A stretch of DNA of 63,005 bases, the filler included, from Basidiobolus ranarum (Eukaryota): NCBI GenBank assembly GCA_040143965.1. It is 43 parts of 43 records of this genome, joined end to end, with 100 filler letters (N's around TTAATTAATTAA, not from the genome) between each part and the next. Parts side by side here need not be neighbours in the genome. Positions count along the whole stretch, not along the records: positions 39,692 to 41,056 come from JASJQH010005401.1; 42 more parts are not named here. The stretch is one strand, 5' to 3'. A program made the position numbers and the translations under genes. Positions 10,318 through 63,005 of the stretch are shown piece by piece. Under the pieces are notes generated by a model. The model saw only the letters and a program-made list of their open reading frames with translations, was not told the origin of the DNA and made no database searches. Every line of letters begins with the position of its first letter. The stretch's first letter is position 1.

Positions 10318-11293
10318 GTAGATGATCTTATTATAGTGAATAAAGACTTGAAGAATTTGTAGAAAACCAATTCCAGCTAATCTGCCAAATACAAAACAAC
10401 TGATCTTGGTGAGCTGACATACTATCTTGGAATTCTAATTAAGATAGATAGAACTACCAAAATAATAACCTTAAACCAGTTTAAGTATATCCTAGATATA
10501 CTAAAGAAGTTTAAAATGGAAGAATGTAATCCTGTATCTATCCCAATGGAGACAAATCTTAACTTGACCAAAAATAGCTCAAATCAGACATTTTTGAATT
10601 CAAATGAAAGCCAAAAATTTTCTTATCAATCTATGGTTGGTAGTCTGATATATATCATGGTTGGAACATGGCCAGATATGGCATATTTGGTGGGAGTTAT
10701 GTGCCAATATCTTCAAAATTATGGATCAGATCAAATCATAGCAGTCAAGTGGATTTTCAGATATTTGAAACAAACTGTGGATCTGGGCTTAAAATACACC
10801 TATTCTGCATCAAACTTTGACCTGATGGAATATTCAGATGCAAATTGGGGAAGAGTTACAAAAGACAGTAAATCTACAACAGGATACATATTTATTGCTG
10901 TAATGGAGCTATTTCATGGAATATAAAGAAACAACCCACTGTAGCACTTTGAACAGCAGAAGCAGAATACATGGCTGCCTGTGAAGCAACAAAGATGCAA
11001 TATTGTTAAGAAAACTCTTAACAGATTTAGCTTGTTCCCTAAATTCACCAACTACAGTATTTCAAGATAATCAATGTTGCATCAAATTAGCTAAATATCC
11101 CATGTTTCATAATAGAAGCAAGCACATAGATATTAAGCATCACTTCATTAGAGAGACTGTGGAGAATAAGTTTATTGACTTAACTTATTTTTCTTCAGAA
11201 GTCATGATTGCTGATATATTAACCAAACCATTTGCTAGACAGAAATTTGGAAAATTCAGACCTTTACAAGGATTAGTCTATAAGACTATTTAG
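10318..11293 (+). mobile_element. Ty1/copia RT C-terminus and RNase H (family B), degenerate
   Basis: VDDLII, YQSMVGSLIY, YSDANWG, STTGYIF, EAEYMA, RSKHIDIKHHFIRE, MIADILTKP. Confidence 0.95.
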
Positions 11294-13502: not shown

Positions 13503-14632
13503 CAGAATCCCTGGAGTACTTTCCCAGCACATTAAGCATCACCATCCCATTGCCTTTGAGTCCAAGAAACTTACTCAGGCTGAAGTAAACTACCCTGTGC
13601 ATGAAAAGGAACTTTATGCAATCTTTAAATGCTTCAAAACATGGAGATGCTACTTAGAAGGATCCAAGACAACAGTAAAAACTGATCATGCATCTTTAAG
13701 ACATCTACTAACTCAGAAACAGCTATCTAGACATGTTACCAGATGGATAGAGTACTTACAAGGATTTGACTTTGAAATTCTATACATTTCAGGCAAGAAA
13801 AATGTTGTTGCTGACACTTTATCAAGAATCCCTTACACAAAGATGAAGTTAATACTATAGTGGATCAGACTGAATGGCCTGGACTTCTACTTCAGTACTG
13901 GAGTGATGGAAGCCTACCTACTGAATGTAGCCAAGAGGTCAAAGACTTGGTGATCTCAAAGCACTCTGAATTTGTGGAAACTGATGGAGCAATCTTTAGG
14001 AAAACACCCAAGGGCAACATCCCATACATTCCCTTTGTGATGAGAACAGATCTAATAGCTAAATTTCACCATGGCTATGGCCATTTGGGCACTGCTGGAA
14101 CATTCAACCTACTAGAAACAAGAGCCTGGTGGCCAGATATGCTTAAAGATGTTCAAAATTTGGTAAAAGCTTGTCCTGAATGCCAACTAACCCAAAACCA
14201 TAAGAAGAACACCTCTGAGATGTATCCTTTGCCTACCACTGAACCTTTCCAAAGATGGGCACTTGACTTTATTGGTATACTGCCAAAGACTGATACTGGC
14301 TTCCAGTGGATATTAGTGGGCATAGATCATTGTACCAAATGGCCTGTAGCAAGAGCTGTAAAGAATGCCACCCACCAAGAAGTAGCCAAGTTCATCTATG
14401 AGGAAATACTCTTACAATTTGGATGCCCAACCAAAATTCTGACTGACAGAGGTGCAAATTTCATGGCAGACTCTCTAGAACACTATCTGGAACTCCAAAA
14501 GATCAAGCACCTACAAACTTTGGCATATCATCCAAGAACTAATGGGGCTGTTGAAAGATTCAATGGTTTATTTGGAAGAATGCTCACAAAGTACTGTAAA
14601 GGAGCAACACACAAGTGGGAACAATTTATACA
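13503..14632 (+). mobile_element. Ty3/gypsy pol: RNase H, integrase zinc finger and catalytic core
   Basis: HPIAFESKKL..AEVNYPVHEKELYAI, TDHASL, HxxxGHLG...CPECQ, WALDFIG, TDRGANF, YHPRTNGAVERFN. Confidence 0.95.
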
Positions 14633-19145: not shown

Positions 19146-20515
19146 ACTGGTTCCATTACTGCATCACTATATTCAGCTGAAGGAAGTTTTCTGGATACTG
19201 GCTTTACTTTCTGGCTTACAGGCTTGTATTTTGTAAATGAGTGTGGAGTTGTGTTTTCTGGTTTAAAAGTATGGTATGTAAGCACTTCTCTCTGTTGTTC
19301 TTTGATAATTAGTGGTACATCTGAGGAGTTTCTGATATGAATACTTTCACTAGCACAGAAAGTAGTTCTTCTTTTTCTGTCCTCTGATGTTATTGTTAAC
19401 CATAGACTACCATCTGGTCTATTATCAGCTTGCAATAAAGCTCTTCTTTCATATGGTCTTCCAAGTAGTATGTCAAAGGATGGTCCATCTGATACAATAA
19501 AGAAGGGTGATGATACTTTGACTCCTCCAATATCTAATGATACTGCGTGACAGACTCCTAGCATCTTCTCAGAAGCACCATTTGCAGTTTTCATAGTCCA
19601 AGAAACCTCAGTTGAAGGAAGGTTAAGGCTTTTGAAGACAGACTCCTTGATAGCATTAATTTCTGAGCCAGAATCAAAGATACATTCCACTACTTGACCT
19701 TCTATGGTTGCTTTGTAAGATCCAGTAGCTATGGAGTAGTATGCCTTCTCTACTTCTAATCTTAGCTGCTCAGGTGTAAAGGATTTGTCTAAATTCTGAG
19801 AGATGTGATATTCATTTGGACAATGCACCAAGTTATTGTTAACTTCTTTCTTAACAGGCTTGAAGAGTGCTGGCAGAGTTTGCTGTAGATGTTCCACTGC
19901 TGAAAACATCTCTTGGTTGGTGATTTGAGGAAATGGTGACTTTAAGAACTTATCAATGACCTTTTGTGCAGTGGCAGAGTCAGCAACAGGCATCTGATAC
20001 TTTCCCTTTCTCTTAGTATCAGGTGGTGTTTCTTTTGATAATGGTACTATTACTTCCACTTCTGTCTTTGGTTCAGGTTTGAAACTTTTGTTTGGTTTCC
20101 AATCTTGACTTGCATCTTTTCTTTTCTCTATAAAAGAGTTAACTTCCTTTGCTTCTTCAGGTTCCATCAGATACTCATGAACCTCACCACTAGGTTCAGT
20201 AAGTGTACAGATGAATCTTTCTCTGGCTGGAACTCTAGGAATAGAGTCTACCTTGAAGTAGTTGCTGCTCTTGACTTCATTATTGGTACTGGATTTTCCT
20301 CTAATGAAAGCCATTATACCTCCATGCCCCTTGTTTAGGCTTAATGGATTTCCTTGACTATCACAGATCTTGCCATACTTGTTAATGGAAGCTCTGTTCT
20401 GGTCAATGTCTGTGTTGAGTTCCTGGCAACTTGATCTATAGTGTTCTTCAGATTCACAATAGATACAATACTTTGGTTTAAAAGTATTTTCTTTCCCTGA
20501 GGATGAGTTACTGTT
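19146..20515 (-). mobile_element. Ty3/gypsy gag-protease ORF, open across the whole contig (~456 codons)
   Basis: CIYCESEEHYRSSC zinc knuckle in frame upstream of the listed ORF, protease IFDSGSEIN, ILLGRPY, and KYKPVSQKVKPV. Confidence 0.85.
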
Positions 20516-22534: not shown

Positions 22535-22969
22535 TCAGTATATTGTATATTTTGCCACAACAAGAAGAACACTTGTTAGAACGGCACTTGGGATATTCGA
22601 AACACTAGAACTCATTGTATATTTGTCCTCAGGTTTGGTATTATTACCACTTAATATTCCACTATAAACCGTGTTATTTATATTCCCTGATTGGGTTACA
22701 TACGGAGAAGGTACCATATTAGTCGCTGATGGTTGGTTATGTGCTTGGCCATTGGCAGTTACCGATGGTAAATGTTGACCATTGGTAGAATGTTGGGCAT
22801 TACAGAATCCTTCTCCCACACCACAAAAGCCCCAGGAAGAGCAGCATGCTCCAGCTGGACACTCGACACCATTTCCACATGTTCCATCAACGCTTAGAGC
22901 AGCTGAGGTTGGCTGGATAAGATAGGAAGCGGAAGCGAAGATGGCAATAGTAGCAATAGAGAATTTCAT
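22535..22969 (-). CDS. Secreted chitin-binding (CBM18/hevein) protein, probably GPI-anchored
   Basis: Signal peptide, then DGTCGNGVECPAGACCSSWGFCGVGEGFC (hevein CCSxxGxCG motif), an S/T/N-rich stalk and a hydrophobic C-terminus. Complete intronless ORF of 144 aa. Confidence 0.9.
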   Translation of the reverse strand: MKFSIATIAIFASASYLIQPTSAALSVDGTCGNGVECPAGACCSSWGFCGVGEGFCNAQHSTNGQHLPSVTANGQAHNQPSATNMVPSPYVTQSGNINNTVYSGILSGNNTKPEDKYTMSSSVSNIPSAVLTSVLLVVAKYTIY

Positions 22970-23554
22970 TTTAGAATTTAGAGAATTAAGTGATTAAAGT
23001 TAAGGGTTAGAGTTAGAGAAGCGCTGGAATAGTTCTACAAGCTGGTTTGAAATATATTTTGGATTTTATAAGGGACTGCTGTCTCAAAAATGGTATAATC
23101 TCCGTAAATGGATGATTTTGTTACAATCAATGTAAAATGTCATTACACATCCTATGCATTTCGATTGTGTGCTTAATGTCATTCTTTTCCCAGAAAAAGA
23201 TGCAGCAGGAGTATGAATAATGTTGCAATTATGAAAGGAGTAACGAAAGTAAGATACTGATGGCTTCCTTTGATGTCATGTGATTATCATTGGAATATTT
23301 GATAATGACGTTAAATTCTTGATGAACTAAGTTTGAAATAGGGAATTCTTAGTTGTTAACCAAATATATGTAATTCATGCAAATTACAAGTATTCCATTT
23401 GTTGTGAGCTTGGAACTTGGCAATAAGTGAGATCATAGATTCTGCGGTAATATGNNNNNNNNNNNNNNNNNNNNNNNNNNNNNNNNNNNNNNNNNNNNTT
23501 AATTAATTAANNNNNNNNNNNNNNNNNNNNNNNNNNNNNNNNNNNNNNNNNNNN

Positions 23555-39582: not shown

Positions 39583-39691
39583 TACAGAGAGNNNNNNNNN
39601 NNNNNNNNNNNNNNNNNNNNNNNNNNNNNNNNNNNTTAATTAATTAANNNNNNNNNNNNNNNNNNNNNNNNNNNNNNNNNNNNNNNNNNNN

Positions 39692-41054
39692 GAAGTCGAA
39701 GAGCAATATCATCGCATTCATTGTATTCGTCATCGCCATCATCAATAGCTCTACGCGATTTGGTAGGTGCCAAAGTATCTCTTAGGCAAATATTGACATC
39801 AGCTTTGATGATGTTAAGCACTTTAGCATGGGCCTGAATGTCTTCGCATCCCCTACGGTGTACGTCGTCTTTGGTCCATCCACCAGCACTTTTGACGCCA
39901 ATACAAACATCAGCATCTAGTTTGAGACCTAATATGCGAAGTCGAGCAGCGATATCAGGGCATTCGTTATATTCATCACCATCAGAGCCTCGAGAGTGAC
40001 CGAGGTTCAGGATATTGCCAAGACACACATTCACATCAACCTTGAGAATGCCTAGGACCTTAGCATGGGCAACAATGTCATCACAATTCGACTTGTCAAC
40101 ACGGTCTTTTGACCATCCCTTGCTCCCTCTGATACCAAGGCATACATTTGCGTCCACCTTCAAGCCTAACAAACGCAGATAAGCAGCAATATCAGAGCAT
40201 TCATTGTACTCTCCATCGCCATTGGAGCCCTGAGAGTGGCCGAGGTTCAAGATGTTGCCCAGACAGATATTGGCGTCAGCCTTGATAATTCCAAGGATTT
40301 TGGCATGGGCTACGATATCGGCGCATTCCAACCGATCAACATATTCCTTCGACCAGCCGTTACTACCCTTAATACCAAGACATACATTGGCATTCACTTT
40401 TAATCCTAACAAACGAAGGCGTGCAACAACATTATCGCATTCATTGTAATCTTCATCATTGGAACGTCGAGGGTGACCAAGATTCAGAACATTGCGAAGA
40501 CATACATTAACATCAGCCTTGAGAATTCCAAGTACTTTAGCATGAGCAACAATATCATCGCACTCCAACCTGTCAACACGATCTTTTGACCATCCCTTGC
40601 TCCCTCTGGTCCCAAGGCATACATTTACATCCACCTTCAAGCCCAACAAACGAAGACGAGCGACAATATCGTTGCACTCATTGTACCCTCCATCGTCATT
40701 AGCGCCTCGGGAGTGACCGAGGTTCAAGATGTTGTCTAAGCAGACGTTGACATCAGCCTTGATAATTCCGAGTACTTTAGCACGGGCTATGATCTCGGTG
40801 CATTCTAACCGATCAATATGTTCTTTTGACCAGCCATTACTACCCTTAATACCAAGGCATACGTTGGCATCCACCTTTAAGCCTAACAAACGAAGGCGGG
40901 CAACAATATCATCACACTCGTTGTATTCATCATCACCGGATCTTCGAAGTTTGCGTGGTTCTCTATCATTCTGTAGACAAATATTGACATCAGCATCAAT
41001 AATGTTTAGTATTCTAGCTTTGACCACAAGTGCTTCACACCCCATTCGATTAAT
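39692..41054 (-). CDS. Cys-patterned tandem-repeat protein (internal fragment, five full ~80-aa units), unknown family
   Basis: Stop-free over the whole contig and CpG-normal. Unit = YNEC-x18-C-LGxxGSxGWSK-x7-C-x19-C-linker. Confidence 0.9.
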
Positions 41055-41156
41055 TTNNNNNNNNNNNNNNNNNNNNNNNNNNNNNNNNNNNNNNNNNNNN
41101 TTAATTAATTAANNNNNNNNNNNNNNNNNNNNNNNNNNNNNNNNNNNNNNNNNNNN

Positions 41157-42621: not shown

Positions 42622-43686
42622 ATGGTGGTTGTTTTCCTTCTTGTAGATCTATAGGGCAATCATATGGGTGGTGAGCTGGGAGTATGTCAGATTTCTTCTT
42701 GTCAAAGACATCAGCAAAGGCTTGGTGTTTGGGTGGGAGCTTATGAACCATTGGTTTTGTTGGTTTCAGCTCTTCAGCAATACTGTCAATGGATATTGGC
42801 TTTACAGATGTTTTTAGGAGTCAGGCTGGTGATGAGTTGGATATTTTGCAGGTTGGCAAGTATGGACTAGGAGGTGGAGTTTGCTTGAACATTATAATCT
42901 TCTTCTTCCAATTGATTACTGGGTTGTGCTGCATGAGCCATGATATACCAAGGATAACTGGGTGGTGAGGTGAAGAAATGATATTAAAGGCTATTTCTTC
43001 TTGATGAGCAGTGGACATGAGTGTCATAAAGGTTGTCTCATGTGTTACAGCACCTGATGATAGTAGCCTTCCATCAATGGCTTCTATAAGGACTGGACTA
43101 GATTTCTTGATTGTTAGGATAGAGTGGGATTTTACAAAGGCGGAGTCAATGAAACAGGAGGAAGCACCTGAATCAAGAAGTGCAGTTGTTTTTATTGAAT
43201 TGGAATTTGCAAGCAGGAGTGTAATGGGCAGCTTTAATGATTTGTATGACTGCAGAGATTGCAATGTATGGTGAAGATACGTTTTTGAAGGTGGTTTGCC
43301 CAACTGCATGCCCATTATTGCAGCTGGGTGTTGAAGTTTTCTGATGGTTGGGAAGAGGTCTCTTGCATATTGTTGATTTGAATCCAGGATTCTTCTTTGG
43401 ACAGGTTCTTGCTACATGTCCAGGAGCTCCACAATAGAGGCAAAGATTCTCTTGTTGGCATCAATATTTCTCCTCAGGGCTAAGCTTTCTCAAGGGAGTT
43501 CCATCAATTTGCATTGGGTCATCAGCTTGAGCTGTATTTTGTGTTTGATGGAAGGGGGGTCTGAAAGTAGAAGATGAAGGAGAGAAGAAAGGAACCATAT
43601 TTCTTTGTTGTTGTCTTTTAAACAGCCGGTTGTTACATTTAACTGCCTGGTGGATAGCATCAGTTAAGGTCACTGGATCAGCCATA
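42622..43686 (-). mobile_element. Ty3/gypsy gag C-terminus, protease and RT start (Tf1/sushi-like)
   Basis: DPMQID, NLCLYCGAPGHVARTC, ALLDSGASSCFID, VILGISWL..HNPVINW, FADVF...LPAHHPYDCPIDL. Confidence 0.93.
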
Positions 43687-49943: not shown

Positions 49944-50451
49944 CAATAATGTTTAGTATTCTAGCTTTGACCACGAGAGCTTCACACCCCATTCGATTAA
50001 CTTCATTTCTGGACAGGTCACCAGCACCTCGAAGGCCAACACATACATTGGCATCTACCTTGACCTTTAGAAGTCTGAGTCTGGCAACGATGTCTCTACA
50101 CCGACGTTCATCATCATCTTCACTCCTCTTAGAATTTCGATGAGACTCATTGCCAATGTTCCCGAGGCAGACATTAGCATCAACATGGATACCAAGAGCC
50201 CTGACTCGGACTGCAAGTTGGTCACATGACAAATCAGCAGGATTTAGAAGCTCAAGCCCATCATCACTCTTATCAGGTTGACCACTGCACATACCTGGAT
50301 CAATATTCAGGCCATGGCGAGTGCTGAGGTGCGACAACAGATCTTGACAGTAGCTGATTCCAGCAGGTGGAACATATCCTCTCTCTACAACAAAACTGGA
50401 GGCAAGAAGAGCACTAGATAGAAGTAACAAAAGATTGTTGGCGGGAATCAT
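49944..50451 (-). CDS. Secreted Cys-patterned repeat protein, N-terminal part (same family as 39692-41054)
   Basis: Signal peptide MIPANNLLLLLSSALLASS, then C-x18-C motifs (CDQLAVRVRALGIHVDANVC; CRDIVARLRLLKVKVDANVC) and a KR site (NSKRSEDD). TATATAA lies ~100 bp upstream. Confidence 0.9.
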
Positions 50452-51142
50452 TCTATTAGTGGTTGGTATACGGACAGTGAGAGAGAGAGAGAGGATAGAG
50501 CTCTAAGGAAGAGGAGAATGTTAAAGTTTAAGATGAGCCATGAGCTCACTTATATATGAGTTAGCGCCAAATTCATATTCCCGTTTTCTGCTAAGGGATT
50601 GTATAACGACGATAATGCATAATAACGGAAATATATTGATAATTACCTAGTATCTTATTACTGCAATAAATATTTTACCATAAAACCTATTATGATTATC
50701 TATCCTTCCTTTATTCTATTGTACTCCTTCTCTTAACAATCTATTTAGGGACGGGATACTAAATTCAATAATTCAAAATATATACCACTGACAGCATAAT
50801 GGATGGATTATATGAATTTTTCGTAATATTAATTAACAAGTTTCCGGATGCGAAAATGTAGTAAATGCATTGAATTCATGGAGGGGAATACTTCAGTTTA
50901 ATAAATATATATTCTCCACAATTGGCATGAGTTCATGGTCCTTAGGGAGAACTTGCTAAGAAGGATACACTCGGTCGGGAATATTTTGTCAAATTATTTC
51001 ACAAGAAAAGTTTACACAGTCACAATTGTATTATTTCAACGTCGCCAAGTAATTTTATTAAGAAAGTAAGGATGCAAGAAAATGCTCTCAATTATTGAGA
51101 ACCAGCATCATTATACAAGAATCAATCTAAAACTGGATTACT

Positions 51143-51307
51143 CTAACAAACGTGCGCATCAACTCCCAAAATGCGAAGTACCTTAGCATGAGCTACTATC
51201 TCTTCGCAACTTCTGTGTTCAGTATCACCCTTTGACCAACCACCACTACCCTTGATACCAATACAAACATTAGCATCTACATTAACACCGAGCAAGCGAA
51301 GATGGGC
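51143..51307 (-). CDS. C-terminus of an upstream tandem paralogue of the repeat protein
   Basis: AHLRLLGVNVDANVCIGIKGSGGWSKGDTEHRSCEEIVAHAKVLRILGVDAHVC* (TAG at 51143-51145). Not in the ORF track. Confidence 0.88.
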   Translation of the reverse strand, partial: AHLRLLGVNVDANVCIGIKGSGGWSKGDTEHRSCEEIVAHAKVLRILGVDAHVC

Positions 51308-60182: not shown

Positions 60183-61261
60183 ATCCTAGTGGTACATCAT
60201 GAGCAAAAAGGGCTTGCTCACTTGATGATGCTACAAAGAAAATTCTTAAACTCTGTATTTATGGGGATTCAGCTATTATGACATATGTAAATGGTGTCAA
60301 GAAACTTGCCCAACAACTGGAATCAGTGAATTATGAAGTACCTGAAATGGATATACCTCTTACCATAATCAGTGGTCTCCCTGAATCATATTCAGCCCTT
60401 ATACTCACTTTGGAAGCAATTGGGGATAAGCTTACTCAGTATTTTCTGATCTCTTGTCTATGTCAAGAAGAACTTAAAAGGAAAGACAAAAGTCTGCTTG
60501 CAGATGAAGCAAAAGCTACCCAAGCATTTTATTCTCAAAATAGCCAACCAGAAAGGAGCACTGTGAAATGTTACAAATATGTAAAACTGGGACATATAGC
60601 ATGTGACCGCAGATCAAAGAAGAAATGGGTTTCAAGGAAAAAGGAAGCATATAAAACCACTAAAAGTGGAAATGAACACTATGTACTTATGGCAATATCT
60701 AAATCAGAAAATGACTCTGCTCATGTATGGATTCTAGATTCTGGTGCAAGTGATCATATGTGTCACAATAGGAACATTATGCATGACTATATGGAAATAG
60801 AAGCTCTGGACATCATAGTAGCTGGAAGCAAGAAACTGGTTGCATATGGAATGGGAAAGGTCACACTTGACTTACAAATAAGTAAAGCCAAAAGTGTATG
60901 GTAACCTTATAAGATGTCTTATCTATTCCATCATTTACAACAAATCTGTTTTCAATTGGTGCAATTGAAAGAAATATTATGATATCAAATTCAGCTTTAG
61001 AAGCAATTGAAAAGGAAACATTATGATGTCAAATTCAGCCAAGGAAAAGAAACCATATACAAATCAAAAGGCTTGATAGTAGCAACTGGAACAACAATTG
61101 GGAATCTATATCACATGGATATTGCACCAATAGCTGAGACTATTTCTAACTTTGCAACAATTACTTCTGGATACTTGATCACTTGGCATCAGCACCTGGG
61201 TCTTCTAAGCTATGATAGTGTGAAACTATTATATAAAAATAGCCTATGTACTGGAATGGAT
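60183..61261 (+). mobile_element. Ty1/copia gag, protease and GAG-pre-integrase of a further family
   Basis: IISGLPESYSAL, degenerate zinc knuckle CYKYVKLGHIACD, WILDSGASDHMC, WHQHLG. Confidence 0.9.
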
Positions 61262-61544: not shown

Positions 61545-61790
61545 NNNNNNNNNNNNNNNNNNNNNNNNNNNNNNNNNNNNNNNNNNNNTTAATTAATTAA
61601 NNNNNNNNNNNNNNNNNNNNNNNNNNNNNNNNNNNNNNNNNNNNTGGTGGGATAGTGCCATATTGTTCCTTATAGTGTCCGATCGAGTGTTATAGGACCC
61701 AGCCATGGTAATTGACAGATCGCGCCAGATGGTGTACTAGCAGGCTGGATCGAGCAGCACGATCTGACCTGGTCCGATGGAACAAGTCTA

Positions 61791-63005
61791 ATTTCTTGAA
61801 GATATCAAAGGCTGCATCCTTAATGGCCAGAAAGTATACCCAAGTATACTTTGTCTTATCATCAATCAAGGCCATAAAATACATTTTTCTGCCTAAGGAT
61901 TTTGTCTGCATGGGACCACACAGATCTGAGTGTATCATGCCCAATTTATGATCAATGTTGGTCATTCCAGAGCCCACAAATGGCTGTCTGTGTTGCCTAC
62001 CATATAGGCAACCTTCATATAGCTCCAGATCAGGTGAAATTACAAAATTTAGTCCCAAAATCATCTTGTTTTTGATTAAATTTCTCATATTTTCAGCTCC
62101 TAGATGACCCAATCTTCTATGCCAAATTTTCCAGTCCATTTCTTCAGCTGTGGCAGTATGAACTTGTTTATATATTAGCCTAATACAATGAAGTTTATAC
62201 AAGCTATTTTGCTTAGCTCCAGAAGCTACATAATTTCTTTTTTGATCCCTAATTGTAGAGCCATTTTGATCAAAATTAAAGCAATATCCCTCAGATGTAG
62301 CTTTACTCAATGATCACAAAATTTTTGCTATTCCAGGTACATATAGCAAATTTTTCAGTTTCAAATACATGTCCCCAGAAATGCCCCCAAGTTCCACTTA
62401 AATTTCTCCCACTCCCAGGGCCTCTATTGGCCAGTGATCTCCCATATAAACCTCCTTATTTATGTTTGTTTTGAGTGTCTTAAGCCAATTTTTTGCTTGG
62501 CAAAATGCTCAGAGGCTCCAGAATCAATATACCACAACCTATGGTCTTGTTCACTGTTCACTGATAGGGCTTAAATGAATAAAAATTCCTCTTTAGTTGA
62601 AGCCTGATTTGCTTGTTGCAACTTCTCATTTTTGTTGTAATTTCTTGATTTTCAATCTTATAACTTTTGTCCTGGCTTGTTACAACCATGGCATAAACCT
62701 GGTTTCCTTCTTTTGTAACCTTTGTACTTGCCAAAGCTATGTTTTCCAGCTCTAAAAAGAGCCACTTCCTCAGATTCTTTTTCATATTATTAATTCTGAG
62801 GTGTTGATCCATTAGCCTTGCCACCACAAACTTCAAAGACAACTTGTAGATCTTGCTTCCAAAGCTGTGACCAAGTTTGAATATTGTTCTGGTAGACTAC
62901 TTGGAAGAGTCATAATGACATCTTCTTCCTTTAGAGTTACACCAATATTTTCCAGTGGTTTTGCCAAAGATCTCACATTTGCAATATGAGTAACCATGCT
63001 TTGAG
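61791..63005 (-). mobile_element. Ty1/copia gag, protease and integrase start, degenerate
   Basis: WYIDSGASEH, WHRRLGHLG, MIHSDLCGPM, YFMALIDDKTKYTWVYFL. Confidence 0.93.

Follow-up and report, generated by a model that had tools for sequence, protein, structure and literature searches.

The DNA analysed here is a window of 63,005 bases from the fungus Basidiobolus ranarum, within which positions 39692-41056 hold part of a gene that very probably encodes a real, secreted, genus-specific protein built of repeated cysteine domains. A role of this protein at the cell surface or in an extracellular matrix is suggested more tentatively, somewhat short of an even chance, and identity and role taken as a single proposition are about evenly balanced. 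The first-pass annotation had described a secreted precursor of Cys-closed hairpins, cut at Kex2-type sites and perhaps standing in for hydrophobins; as a whole that interpretation is partly supported, its peptide-precursor, beta-hairpin and hydrophobin-substitute ideas being mostly unsupported. What emerges is a new, uncharacterised family within a familiar kind, the lineage-specific secreted Cys-rich repeat proteins of fungi.

The repeat array and its four-cysteine domain

The gene is read from the minus strand in a single stop-free frame of 454 codons that starts at 41054 (39692-41054; protein P0001). One other minus-strand frame of the same contig is riddled with stops, and the longest alternative open reading frames (ORFs), on the plus strand, amount to 65 and 127 amino acids. 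Positions 39692-41056 make up one short, complete contig of 1365 bp, and the gene runs off it at either end. All of this contig (minus strand) is taken up by an internal piece of a family gene (K7432_018244), whose stop-free translation counts 454 amino acids. Tandem Repeats Finder reports a period of 240 nt with 4.0 copies and a super-period of 477 nt with 2.0 copies and 83% matches. At the protein level the periodicity is carried by 23 Cys residues, whose 22 gaps cycle strictly through 19, 19, 20 and 20-24 positions. Each unit is laid out as a first motif (motif A, C-x18-C), an 18-residue linker with GWSK, a second motif (motif B, C-x19-C) and an acidic linker of 20-23 residues, and the fragment comprises five full units of 79-82 amino acids, flanked by the last part of another domain ahead of them and by the opening 12 residues of a sixth unit.

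Along the minus strand, residues 1-42 (40929-41054) hold the end of the preceding domain (a B-type motif, C6-C26) and a linker with KLRRSG. Unit 1 (40689-40928, 80 amino acids) follows with motif A, the 18-residue GWSK linker, motif B and an acidic linker that has no dibasic site; unit 2 (40452-40688, 79 amino acids) has HPRRSN in its linker, while units 3 (40212-40451, 80 amino acids) and 4 (39975-40211, 79 amino acids) have linkers free of dibasic sites. Unit 5 (39729-39974, 82 amino acids), with KSRRAI in its linker, is the most divergent, and the contig end cuts the sixth unit after its first 12 residues (39693-39728). The observations from which the first-pass annotation had set out, namely the two motifs with their x18 and x19 spacings, the linkers and the quoted strings, are all present. 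The GxxGSxGWSK linker that it reported stands in four of the five full units, the fifth reading GVKSAGGWTK, and the acidic linkers between units are found in P0001 as described.

The repeat units are old, constrained and under strong purifying selection. Across the 10 unit pairs, non-synonymous differences amount to 0.08-0.29 per site versus 0.40-0.82 for synonymous ones, and the ratio of non-synonymous to synonymous divergence (dN/dS) is 0.03-0.16 in the five of 10 pairs whose synonymous distance is not saturated. Mean dN is lowest in the motifs (0.16), higher in the linker between units (0.28) and highest in the A-B linker (0.34). Given the proportions of non-synonymous and synonymous differences (pN versus pS) among unit pairs, the repeats are more than chance.

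The same architecture was followed through the family with a domain model built from the family alignment and run against 37 proteins. It gave 110 domain matches in these proteins, 91 of them near-complete and 83 unique, and in the 83 instances Cys occupies profile positions 5, 24, 43 and 63 in 82, 83, 82 and 80 cases, respectively, and Gly occupies position 16 in 76. The domain is defined as about 60 amino acids with Cys at 5, 24, 43 and 63 and with Gly at 16 and 54, and its profile matches each of the five full units of P0001 with E values from 2e-33 to 5e-36. On this alignment the conserved core is a four-Cys domain of about 60 amino acids composed of two related Cys-bracketed motifs. The Cys-Cys gap within canonical motifs is 18 or 19 residues in all 16 tabulated proteins, the exceptions being one 25-residue variant (P0004) and the variant C-terminal domains of P0016, P0017 and P0021, where the gaps are shorter and irregular. 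Outside the motifs, every gap in the 16 proteins is variable, ranging from 8 to 75 residues or more. Motifs number seven, an odd count, in P0013, and P0016 has a lone degenerate one. With spacing fixed only inside it, the Cys-bracketed motif behaves like a self-contained element, and the term 'Cys-closed' gains some indirect support. Paired loss of Cys was sought among the 83 instances, of which just four are irregular, all from doubtful gene models. Cys counts in the mature full-length proteins P0004 (32), P0007 (20) and P0009 (16) are even. More distant members (P0016-P0026) carry one or two domains between spacers that are Pro-rich (of PPKDPY or KPGKP types) or rich in Gly, Asn and Tyr.

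A Basidiobolus family with signal-peptide-like N-termini

The fragment is 100% identical to P0003 (K7432_018244), a protein of a 1365-bp contig deposited as 'hypothetical protein' [Basidiobolus ranarum], which is a gene model made on the contig 39692-41056 itself. The deposited model begins at an internal Met (MGCEAL) and ends in ...TKDDLMSIFA, leaving the straight frame; the repeat pattern is kept by the straight frame, and the departure has the look of a spurious splice in a truncated contig. P0004 (K7432_009305, 653 amino acids), the best full-length paralogue, is 68% identical, and homologues occur in B. meristosporus CBS 931.73 as P0005 (ORX77975; 58-68% identical), P0010 and P0011, the genes of the last two adjoining on a single contig. 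Set against P0004 and P0008, P0001 falls short by some 160 residues at its N-terminus and probably by about two units at its C-terminus.

A word-indexed search of 5.8 billion proteins returned seven relatives, all from B. ranarum or B. meristosporus. A HMMER search with a profile of seven members found 19 proteins at E<=0.001 among 1.84 billion representatives, all Basidiobolus-named, and a profile search of the named collection gave 24 matches, again all from B. ranarum or B. meristosporus. In total 36 family proteins were seen, of which B. ranarum accounts for 25 and B. meristosporus for 11, and the family is confined to the genus Basidiobolus in everything searched; fused forms of 1144-3265 amino acids were not found. 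By the names of these database matches the host is Basidiobolus ranarum, which bears out its assignment to the early-diverging fungi. Databases already contain the gene and its relatives as hypothetical proteins, and no account of the family turned up in the literature on Basidiobolus Kex2, hydrophobins or the cysteine-rich secretome, or under its accession and locus names.

Secretion is suggested by the N-termini of the full-length relatives, most of which are hydrophobic. The mean Kyte-Doolittle value is 2.3 over 12 N-terminal residues (P0004, P0006 and the protein of 49944-50451), which agrees with the signal-peptide-like start that had been proposed; P0001 is a fragment without its N-terminus. 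The N-terminus that had been assigned to the family at 50451 belongs to P0002, the N-terminal 169 amino acids of a family gene (49944-50451, minus strand) cut by the end of a separate contig. P0002 begins with a hydrophobic, signal-peptide-like stretch; its first domain is divergent and is separated by a KR site (50125-50130) from the next. Upstream on the same contig lie the last 54 codons and the stop of another family gene (51143-51307, minus strand), so that the contig 49944-51307 holds two family genes head to tail on the minus strand, with 691 bp between the stop of one and the start of the other at 50451. The last 58 nt of this contig overlap the 5' end of the contig 39692-41056 with three mismatches. 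The hydrophobic leader at 50451 is present; its attachment to P0001 is another matter, as the two lie on separate contigs joined by an imperfect overlap, and the gene on 49944-51307 may be an allele or a paralogue, identity with the P0001 gene being unproven.

Tandem arrangement recurs elsewhere in the family. The genes of P0004 and P0007 (K7432_009305 and K7432_009304) share one 12,127-bp contig, K7432_013913-013915 lie together on one of 5,956 bp, and ORX93684 and ORX93685 of B. meristosporus are neighbours on one contig. Full-length proteins span 129-653 amino acids, the single-domain K7432_018175 having 129, end without a hydrophobic C-terminal tail, and are hydrophilic and slightly acidic, with a grand average of hydropathy (GRAVY) of -0.19 to +0.03 and an isoelectric point (pI) of 5.5-6.6.

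That the family was not recognised at first reading was borne out by the libraries, none of which gave an explanatory match. Pfam scans of P0001 and 33 relatives or units produced scattered sub-threshold matches only, the most recurrent family appearing in three of 29 members; sequence-profile searches of the PDB with two family alignments gave no match at E<=10; and ESM Atlas searches with the whole fragment and with one unit gave no usable match. A Urease_alpha N-terminal domain in P0004 reached 24.7 bits against a whole-protein cut-off of 23, with no single passing stretch, and was set aside as repeat-summed noise. The UniRef name 'Xylose isomerase-like TIM barrel domain-containing protein' for P0003 likewise has no support in Pfam. 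The precomputed label PF28059.1 is attached to P0005, and none to the B. ranarum proteins; under PF28059, this domain or protein is probably already modelled in a newer Pfam release than the one scanned.

The automatic UniRef name 'Hydrophobin' is attached to the relatives P0017, P0029, P0030, P0032 and P0033 and found no support in the Pfam scans. A CC pair is absent from all 38 sequences (P0001-P0038), none of which fits the class I or class II hydrophobin spacing, and the Pfam hydrophobin models gave no match at E<=1, E<=10 or E<=0.1. The suggestion that the family acts as a hydrophobin substitute, an amyloid or a source of membrane-active peptides is unsupported: its members' hydrophilic and mildly acidic composition speaks against peptides of the cationic, membrane-active kind and gives no hint of hydrophobin-like behaviour.

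Fold, processing and rival readings

The alternation that had been claimed for hydrophobic and charged residues throughout the motif holds, as one of hydrophobic and polar residues, in its second half (L-K-V-D-A-N-V), where it is near-perfect: averaged over the family, the hydrophobic moment reaches 3.16 at 180 degrees versus about 0.8 at 100 degrees. It does not extend to the first half, which has no clear periodicity and none of beta type. There, the opening Cys is often followed directly by Pro, the next eight residues contain hardly any Pro or Gly (with single exceptions in motif A and a few Gly in motif B), and the half closes with a near-invariant Gly, a residue pattern that fits a short helix with a Gly cap. 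AlphaFold2 gave the 653-residue P0004 (7 rows) a mean predicted local distance difference test (pLDDT) score of 40.0 and a predicted template modelling (pTM) score of 0.20; one unit (29 rows) reached a mean pLDDT of 53.2 and a pTM of 0.34, with zero residues at or above 70. Both models, at this low confidence, place a helix in the first half of the motif and contain no strands. The disulfide-closed beta-hairpins originally envisaged thus find no support, given the missing beta periodicity of the first half and its helical form in both low-confidence models. Foldseek matched the low-confidence unit model to nothing in the PDB at E<=0.001 (best E 5), and Chou-Fasman averages did not separate helix (1.10) from strand (1.10). 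From the residue patterns we infer that the motif may consist of a helix, a Gly turn and an extended amphipathic strand.

These features lead us to propose that the protein would enter the endoplasmic reticulum, where each motif would probably be closed by its own disulfide, two per domain, with a short helix following the first Cys and giving way, at a Gly turn, to an extended amphipathic segment that runs to the second Cys. The mature product would remain a chain of five to eight compact domains strung like beads on short acidic linkers, and might serve outside the cell as a structural, matrix or adhesive part of the wall or of the spore or hyphal surface; the wall or matrix role is suggested because other members string their domains on Pro/Gly-rich spacers, which are typical of such proteins. 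Kex2-type cutting would be plausible at one conserved KR after the divergent N-terminal domain, and cutting at the scattered RR sites may happen, the release of single units presumably not being the design of the family. Several points weigh against a secreted surface or matrix chain of this form. A GPI-like (glycosylphosphatidylinositol) tail is absent, and the long-repeat subfamily to which P0001 belongs is without the Pro/Gly-rich spacers suggestive of wall proteins. Both AlphaFold2 models are unreliable and too weak for a fold assignment. RR followed by acidic residues in half of the P0001 linkers makes partial processing possible, and the contig consists entirely of repeats in a fragmented assembly, so that the order and number of units could reflect assembly collapse.

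The dibasic sites bear most directly on the idea, central to the first-pass annotation, of a Kex2-processed precursor, in which cutting in the Golgi would release the Cys-closed units as surface-active, antimicrobial or signalling peptides. All four quoted strings were located: the RR dipeptides of P0001 at residues 37-38 (KLRRSG, 40941-40946), 196-197 (HPRRSN, 40464-40469) and 434-435 (KSRRAI, 39750-39755), each a possible Kex2-type site on the minus strand, and, on its separate contig, the KR of P0002 (NSKRSE, 50125-50130, minus strand). Such a precursor is favoured by RR followed by acidic residues in three of the six P0001 linkers and by the KR after the divergent N-terminal domain, which is kept in six of eight N-termini. 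It is favoured too by the KR found at one matching place, after the N-terminal domain(s) and before M-H-x-K-P, in 10 of 12 proteins of the Pro-rich subfamily (P0017, P0019, P0021, P0024, P0029-P0031, P0035, P0037 and P0038), and by the statement in PMC7329392 that B. meristosporus is the strain richest in Kex2-processed repeat proteins (KEPs), with 43. Against it, half of the P0001 linkers have no site, and the tally is three of seven in P0004, two of four in P0006, one of two in P0008, one of six in P0005 of B. meristosporus and none of four in P0007. Aligned sites switch on and off between close paralogues, RR alternating with QG or with a deletion: KLRRSG has QG at the same place in P0006, and HPRRSN is not conserved in P0004. 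The RR of KSRRAI also occurs in P0004 and P0008. When residues were shuffled within linkers, at least three of six linkers became dibasic in 1315 of 20000 trials, so the sites in the P0001 linkers are not above chance. Typical membrane-active peptides are cationic, moreover, whereas the units here are close to neutral and the protein as a whole is acidic. A term search of the possibly truncated PMC7329392 supplement that lists Basidiobolus KEPs did not find ORX77975, ORX93685 or ORX93684. As the dibasic sites are patchy and unconserved, regular single-unit release is not a conserved property, and a precursor of this kind is quite unlikely; limited Kex2 cutting at the conserved KR places is plausible on sequence grounds. 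As a candidate conserved Kex2-type site, the KR of the Pro-rich subfamily is preferable to the linker RRs of P0001.

Somewhat less improbable, though still unlikely, is a multivalent binding protein whose lectin-like or wall-polymer modules would recognise chitin, glucan or a host or microbial glycan, the array lending avidity as in effectors of the LysM or carbohydrate-binding module (CBM) type. Tandem small disulfide domains in secreted proteins, a genus-specific expansion of the sort common for interaction proteins, and the Trp conserved in the A-B linker (GWSK) of the long-repeat subfamily would suit it; across the family that Trp is unconserved (28 of 83 domain instances at profile position 33), no carbohydrate-binding Pfam family was matched, and aromatic residues are few overall. 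A string of small two-disulfide domains could also act as a multi-headed protease inhibitor protecting the fungus in the animal gut, by analogy with LEKTI and Kazal arrays. The architecture alone, secreted tandem domains of about 60 amino acids with two disulfides and occasional dibasic sites, would fit that analogy, but no inhibitor family in Pfam or the PDB was matched and no exposed hypervariable reactive-loop position is evident, which makes an inhibitor highly improbable. That there is no functional gene at all, the contig holding an assembly artefact, a collapsed repeat or a pseudogene in decay, is extremely improbable. The contig is short (1365 bp), contains repeats alone and lies among other short contigs on which pieces of long terminal repeat (LTR) retroelements make up six of the 15 long ORFs checked, and the exact sequence has no independent record, P0003 coming from the same contig; yet the 454 codons are stop-free though the units differ at 40-82% of synonymous sites, and the same architecture recurs in full-length paralogues and in B. 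meristosporus homologues on contigs of 12-122 kb. The boldest combination, in which a new disulfide-stapled fold would let a Basidiobolus lacking classical hydrophobins coat its conidia, capilliconidia and walls with this expanded family while KR-bearing members are cut by Kex2 into separately acting pieces, is decidedly improbable. The preferred reading stays with a secreted chain of four-Cys domains that may be left largely whole.

Genomic setting and comparison with known systems

The window strings together 43 separate, unrelated contigs in order of length (1361-1375 bp), with N44-TTAATTAATTAA-N44 between them (for example at 39592-39691 and 41057-41156), so that adjoining genes in it are not genomic neighbours. 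LTR-retrotransposon domains, namely aspartyl protease, integrase, copia-type gag, pre-integrase and RVT_2, were identified in six of 15 long ORFs checked on the other contigs: 19148-20515 (minus strand), 13815-14630 (plus), 60203-60901 (plus), 61693-62313 (minus), 42824-43411 (minus) and 10381-10923 (plus). With LTR domains in six of 15 ORFs, many of these short contigs are repeat fragments. On a further contig, an ORF at 22538-22993 (minus strand) encodes a chitin-recognition domain (Chitin_bind_1, Pfam E 4e-7, 30.5 bits versus a cut-off of 27.8), a further secreted-type Cys-rich module in the B. ranarum genome.

Basidiobolus lives in association with the gut of amphibians and reptiles and occasionally causes disease in humans, and the secreted proteins of early-diverging fungi are mostly uncharacterised. 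As it stands, an orphan secreted repeat family is a common kind of result in fungal genomes. A four-Cys family that is genus-restricted, tandem and under selection, and that neither sequence libraries nor AlphaFold2 could place, is nevertheless a target for structure determination and for surface and secretome proteomics. If it does form a surface-layer or adhesive system, it would represent a non-Dikarya solution to the problems that hydrophobins and known adhesins solve elsewhere.

Among known systems, KEPs such as Rep1 of Ustilago maydis and the yeast alpha-factor precursor resemble the family in their signal-peptide-like start, their tandem repeats and some RR or KR sites followed by acidic residues, and the genus Basidiobolus is itself reported as KEP-rich in PMC7329392. 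They differ in that the Basidiobolus units, of 80 amino acids with four Cys, look like folded domains rather than short peptides, and in that dibasic sites occupy only part of the linkers and are unconserved; the homologues, moreover, did not turn up in the KEP list of PMC7329392 when searched by term. With hydrophobins the family shares a secreted-type, fungal, Cys-rich character and tandem gene arrays, whereas the eight-Cys pattern, the CC pairs and any match to the Pfam hydrophobin models are missing, and its members are hydrophilic and 129-653 amino acids long. The modular wall and surface proteins of fungi offer a third comparison. CFEM-type proteins are an example of small Cys-rich domains strung on Pro/Gly/Ser-rich spacers, to which, as to the other Pfam families scanned, the Basidiobolus proteins have no sequence relation; they also differ from modular wall proteins in having no GPI-like tail and, in the long-repeat subfamily of P0001, short acidic linkers. 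In overall build, nonetheless, the family resembles them, with a signal-peptide-like start, a small Cys domain repeated one to eight times and, in many members, Pro/Gly-rich spacers between the domains.

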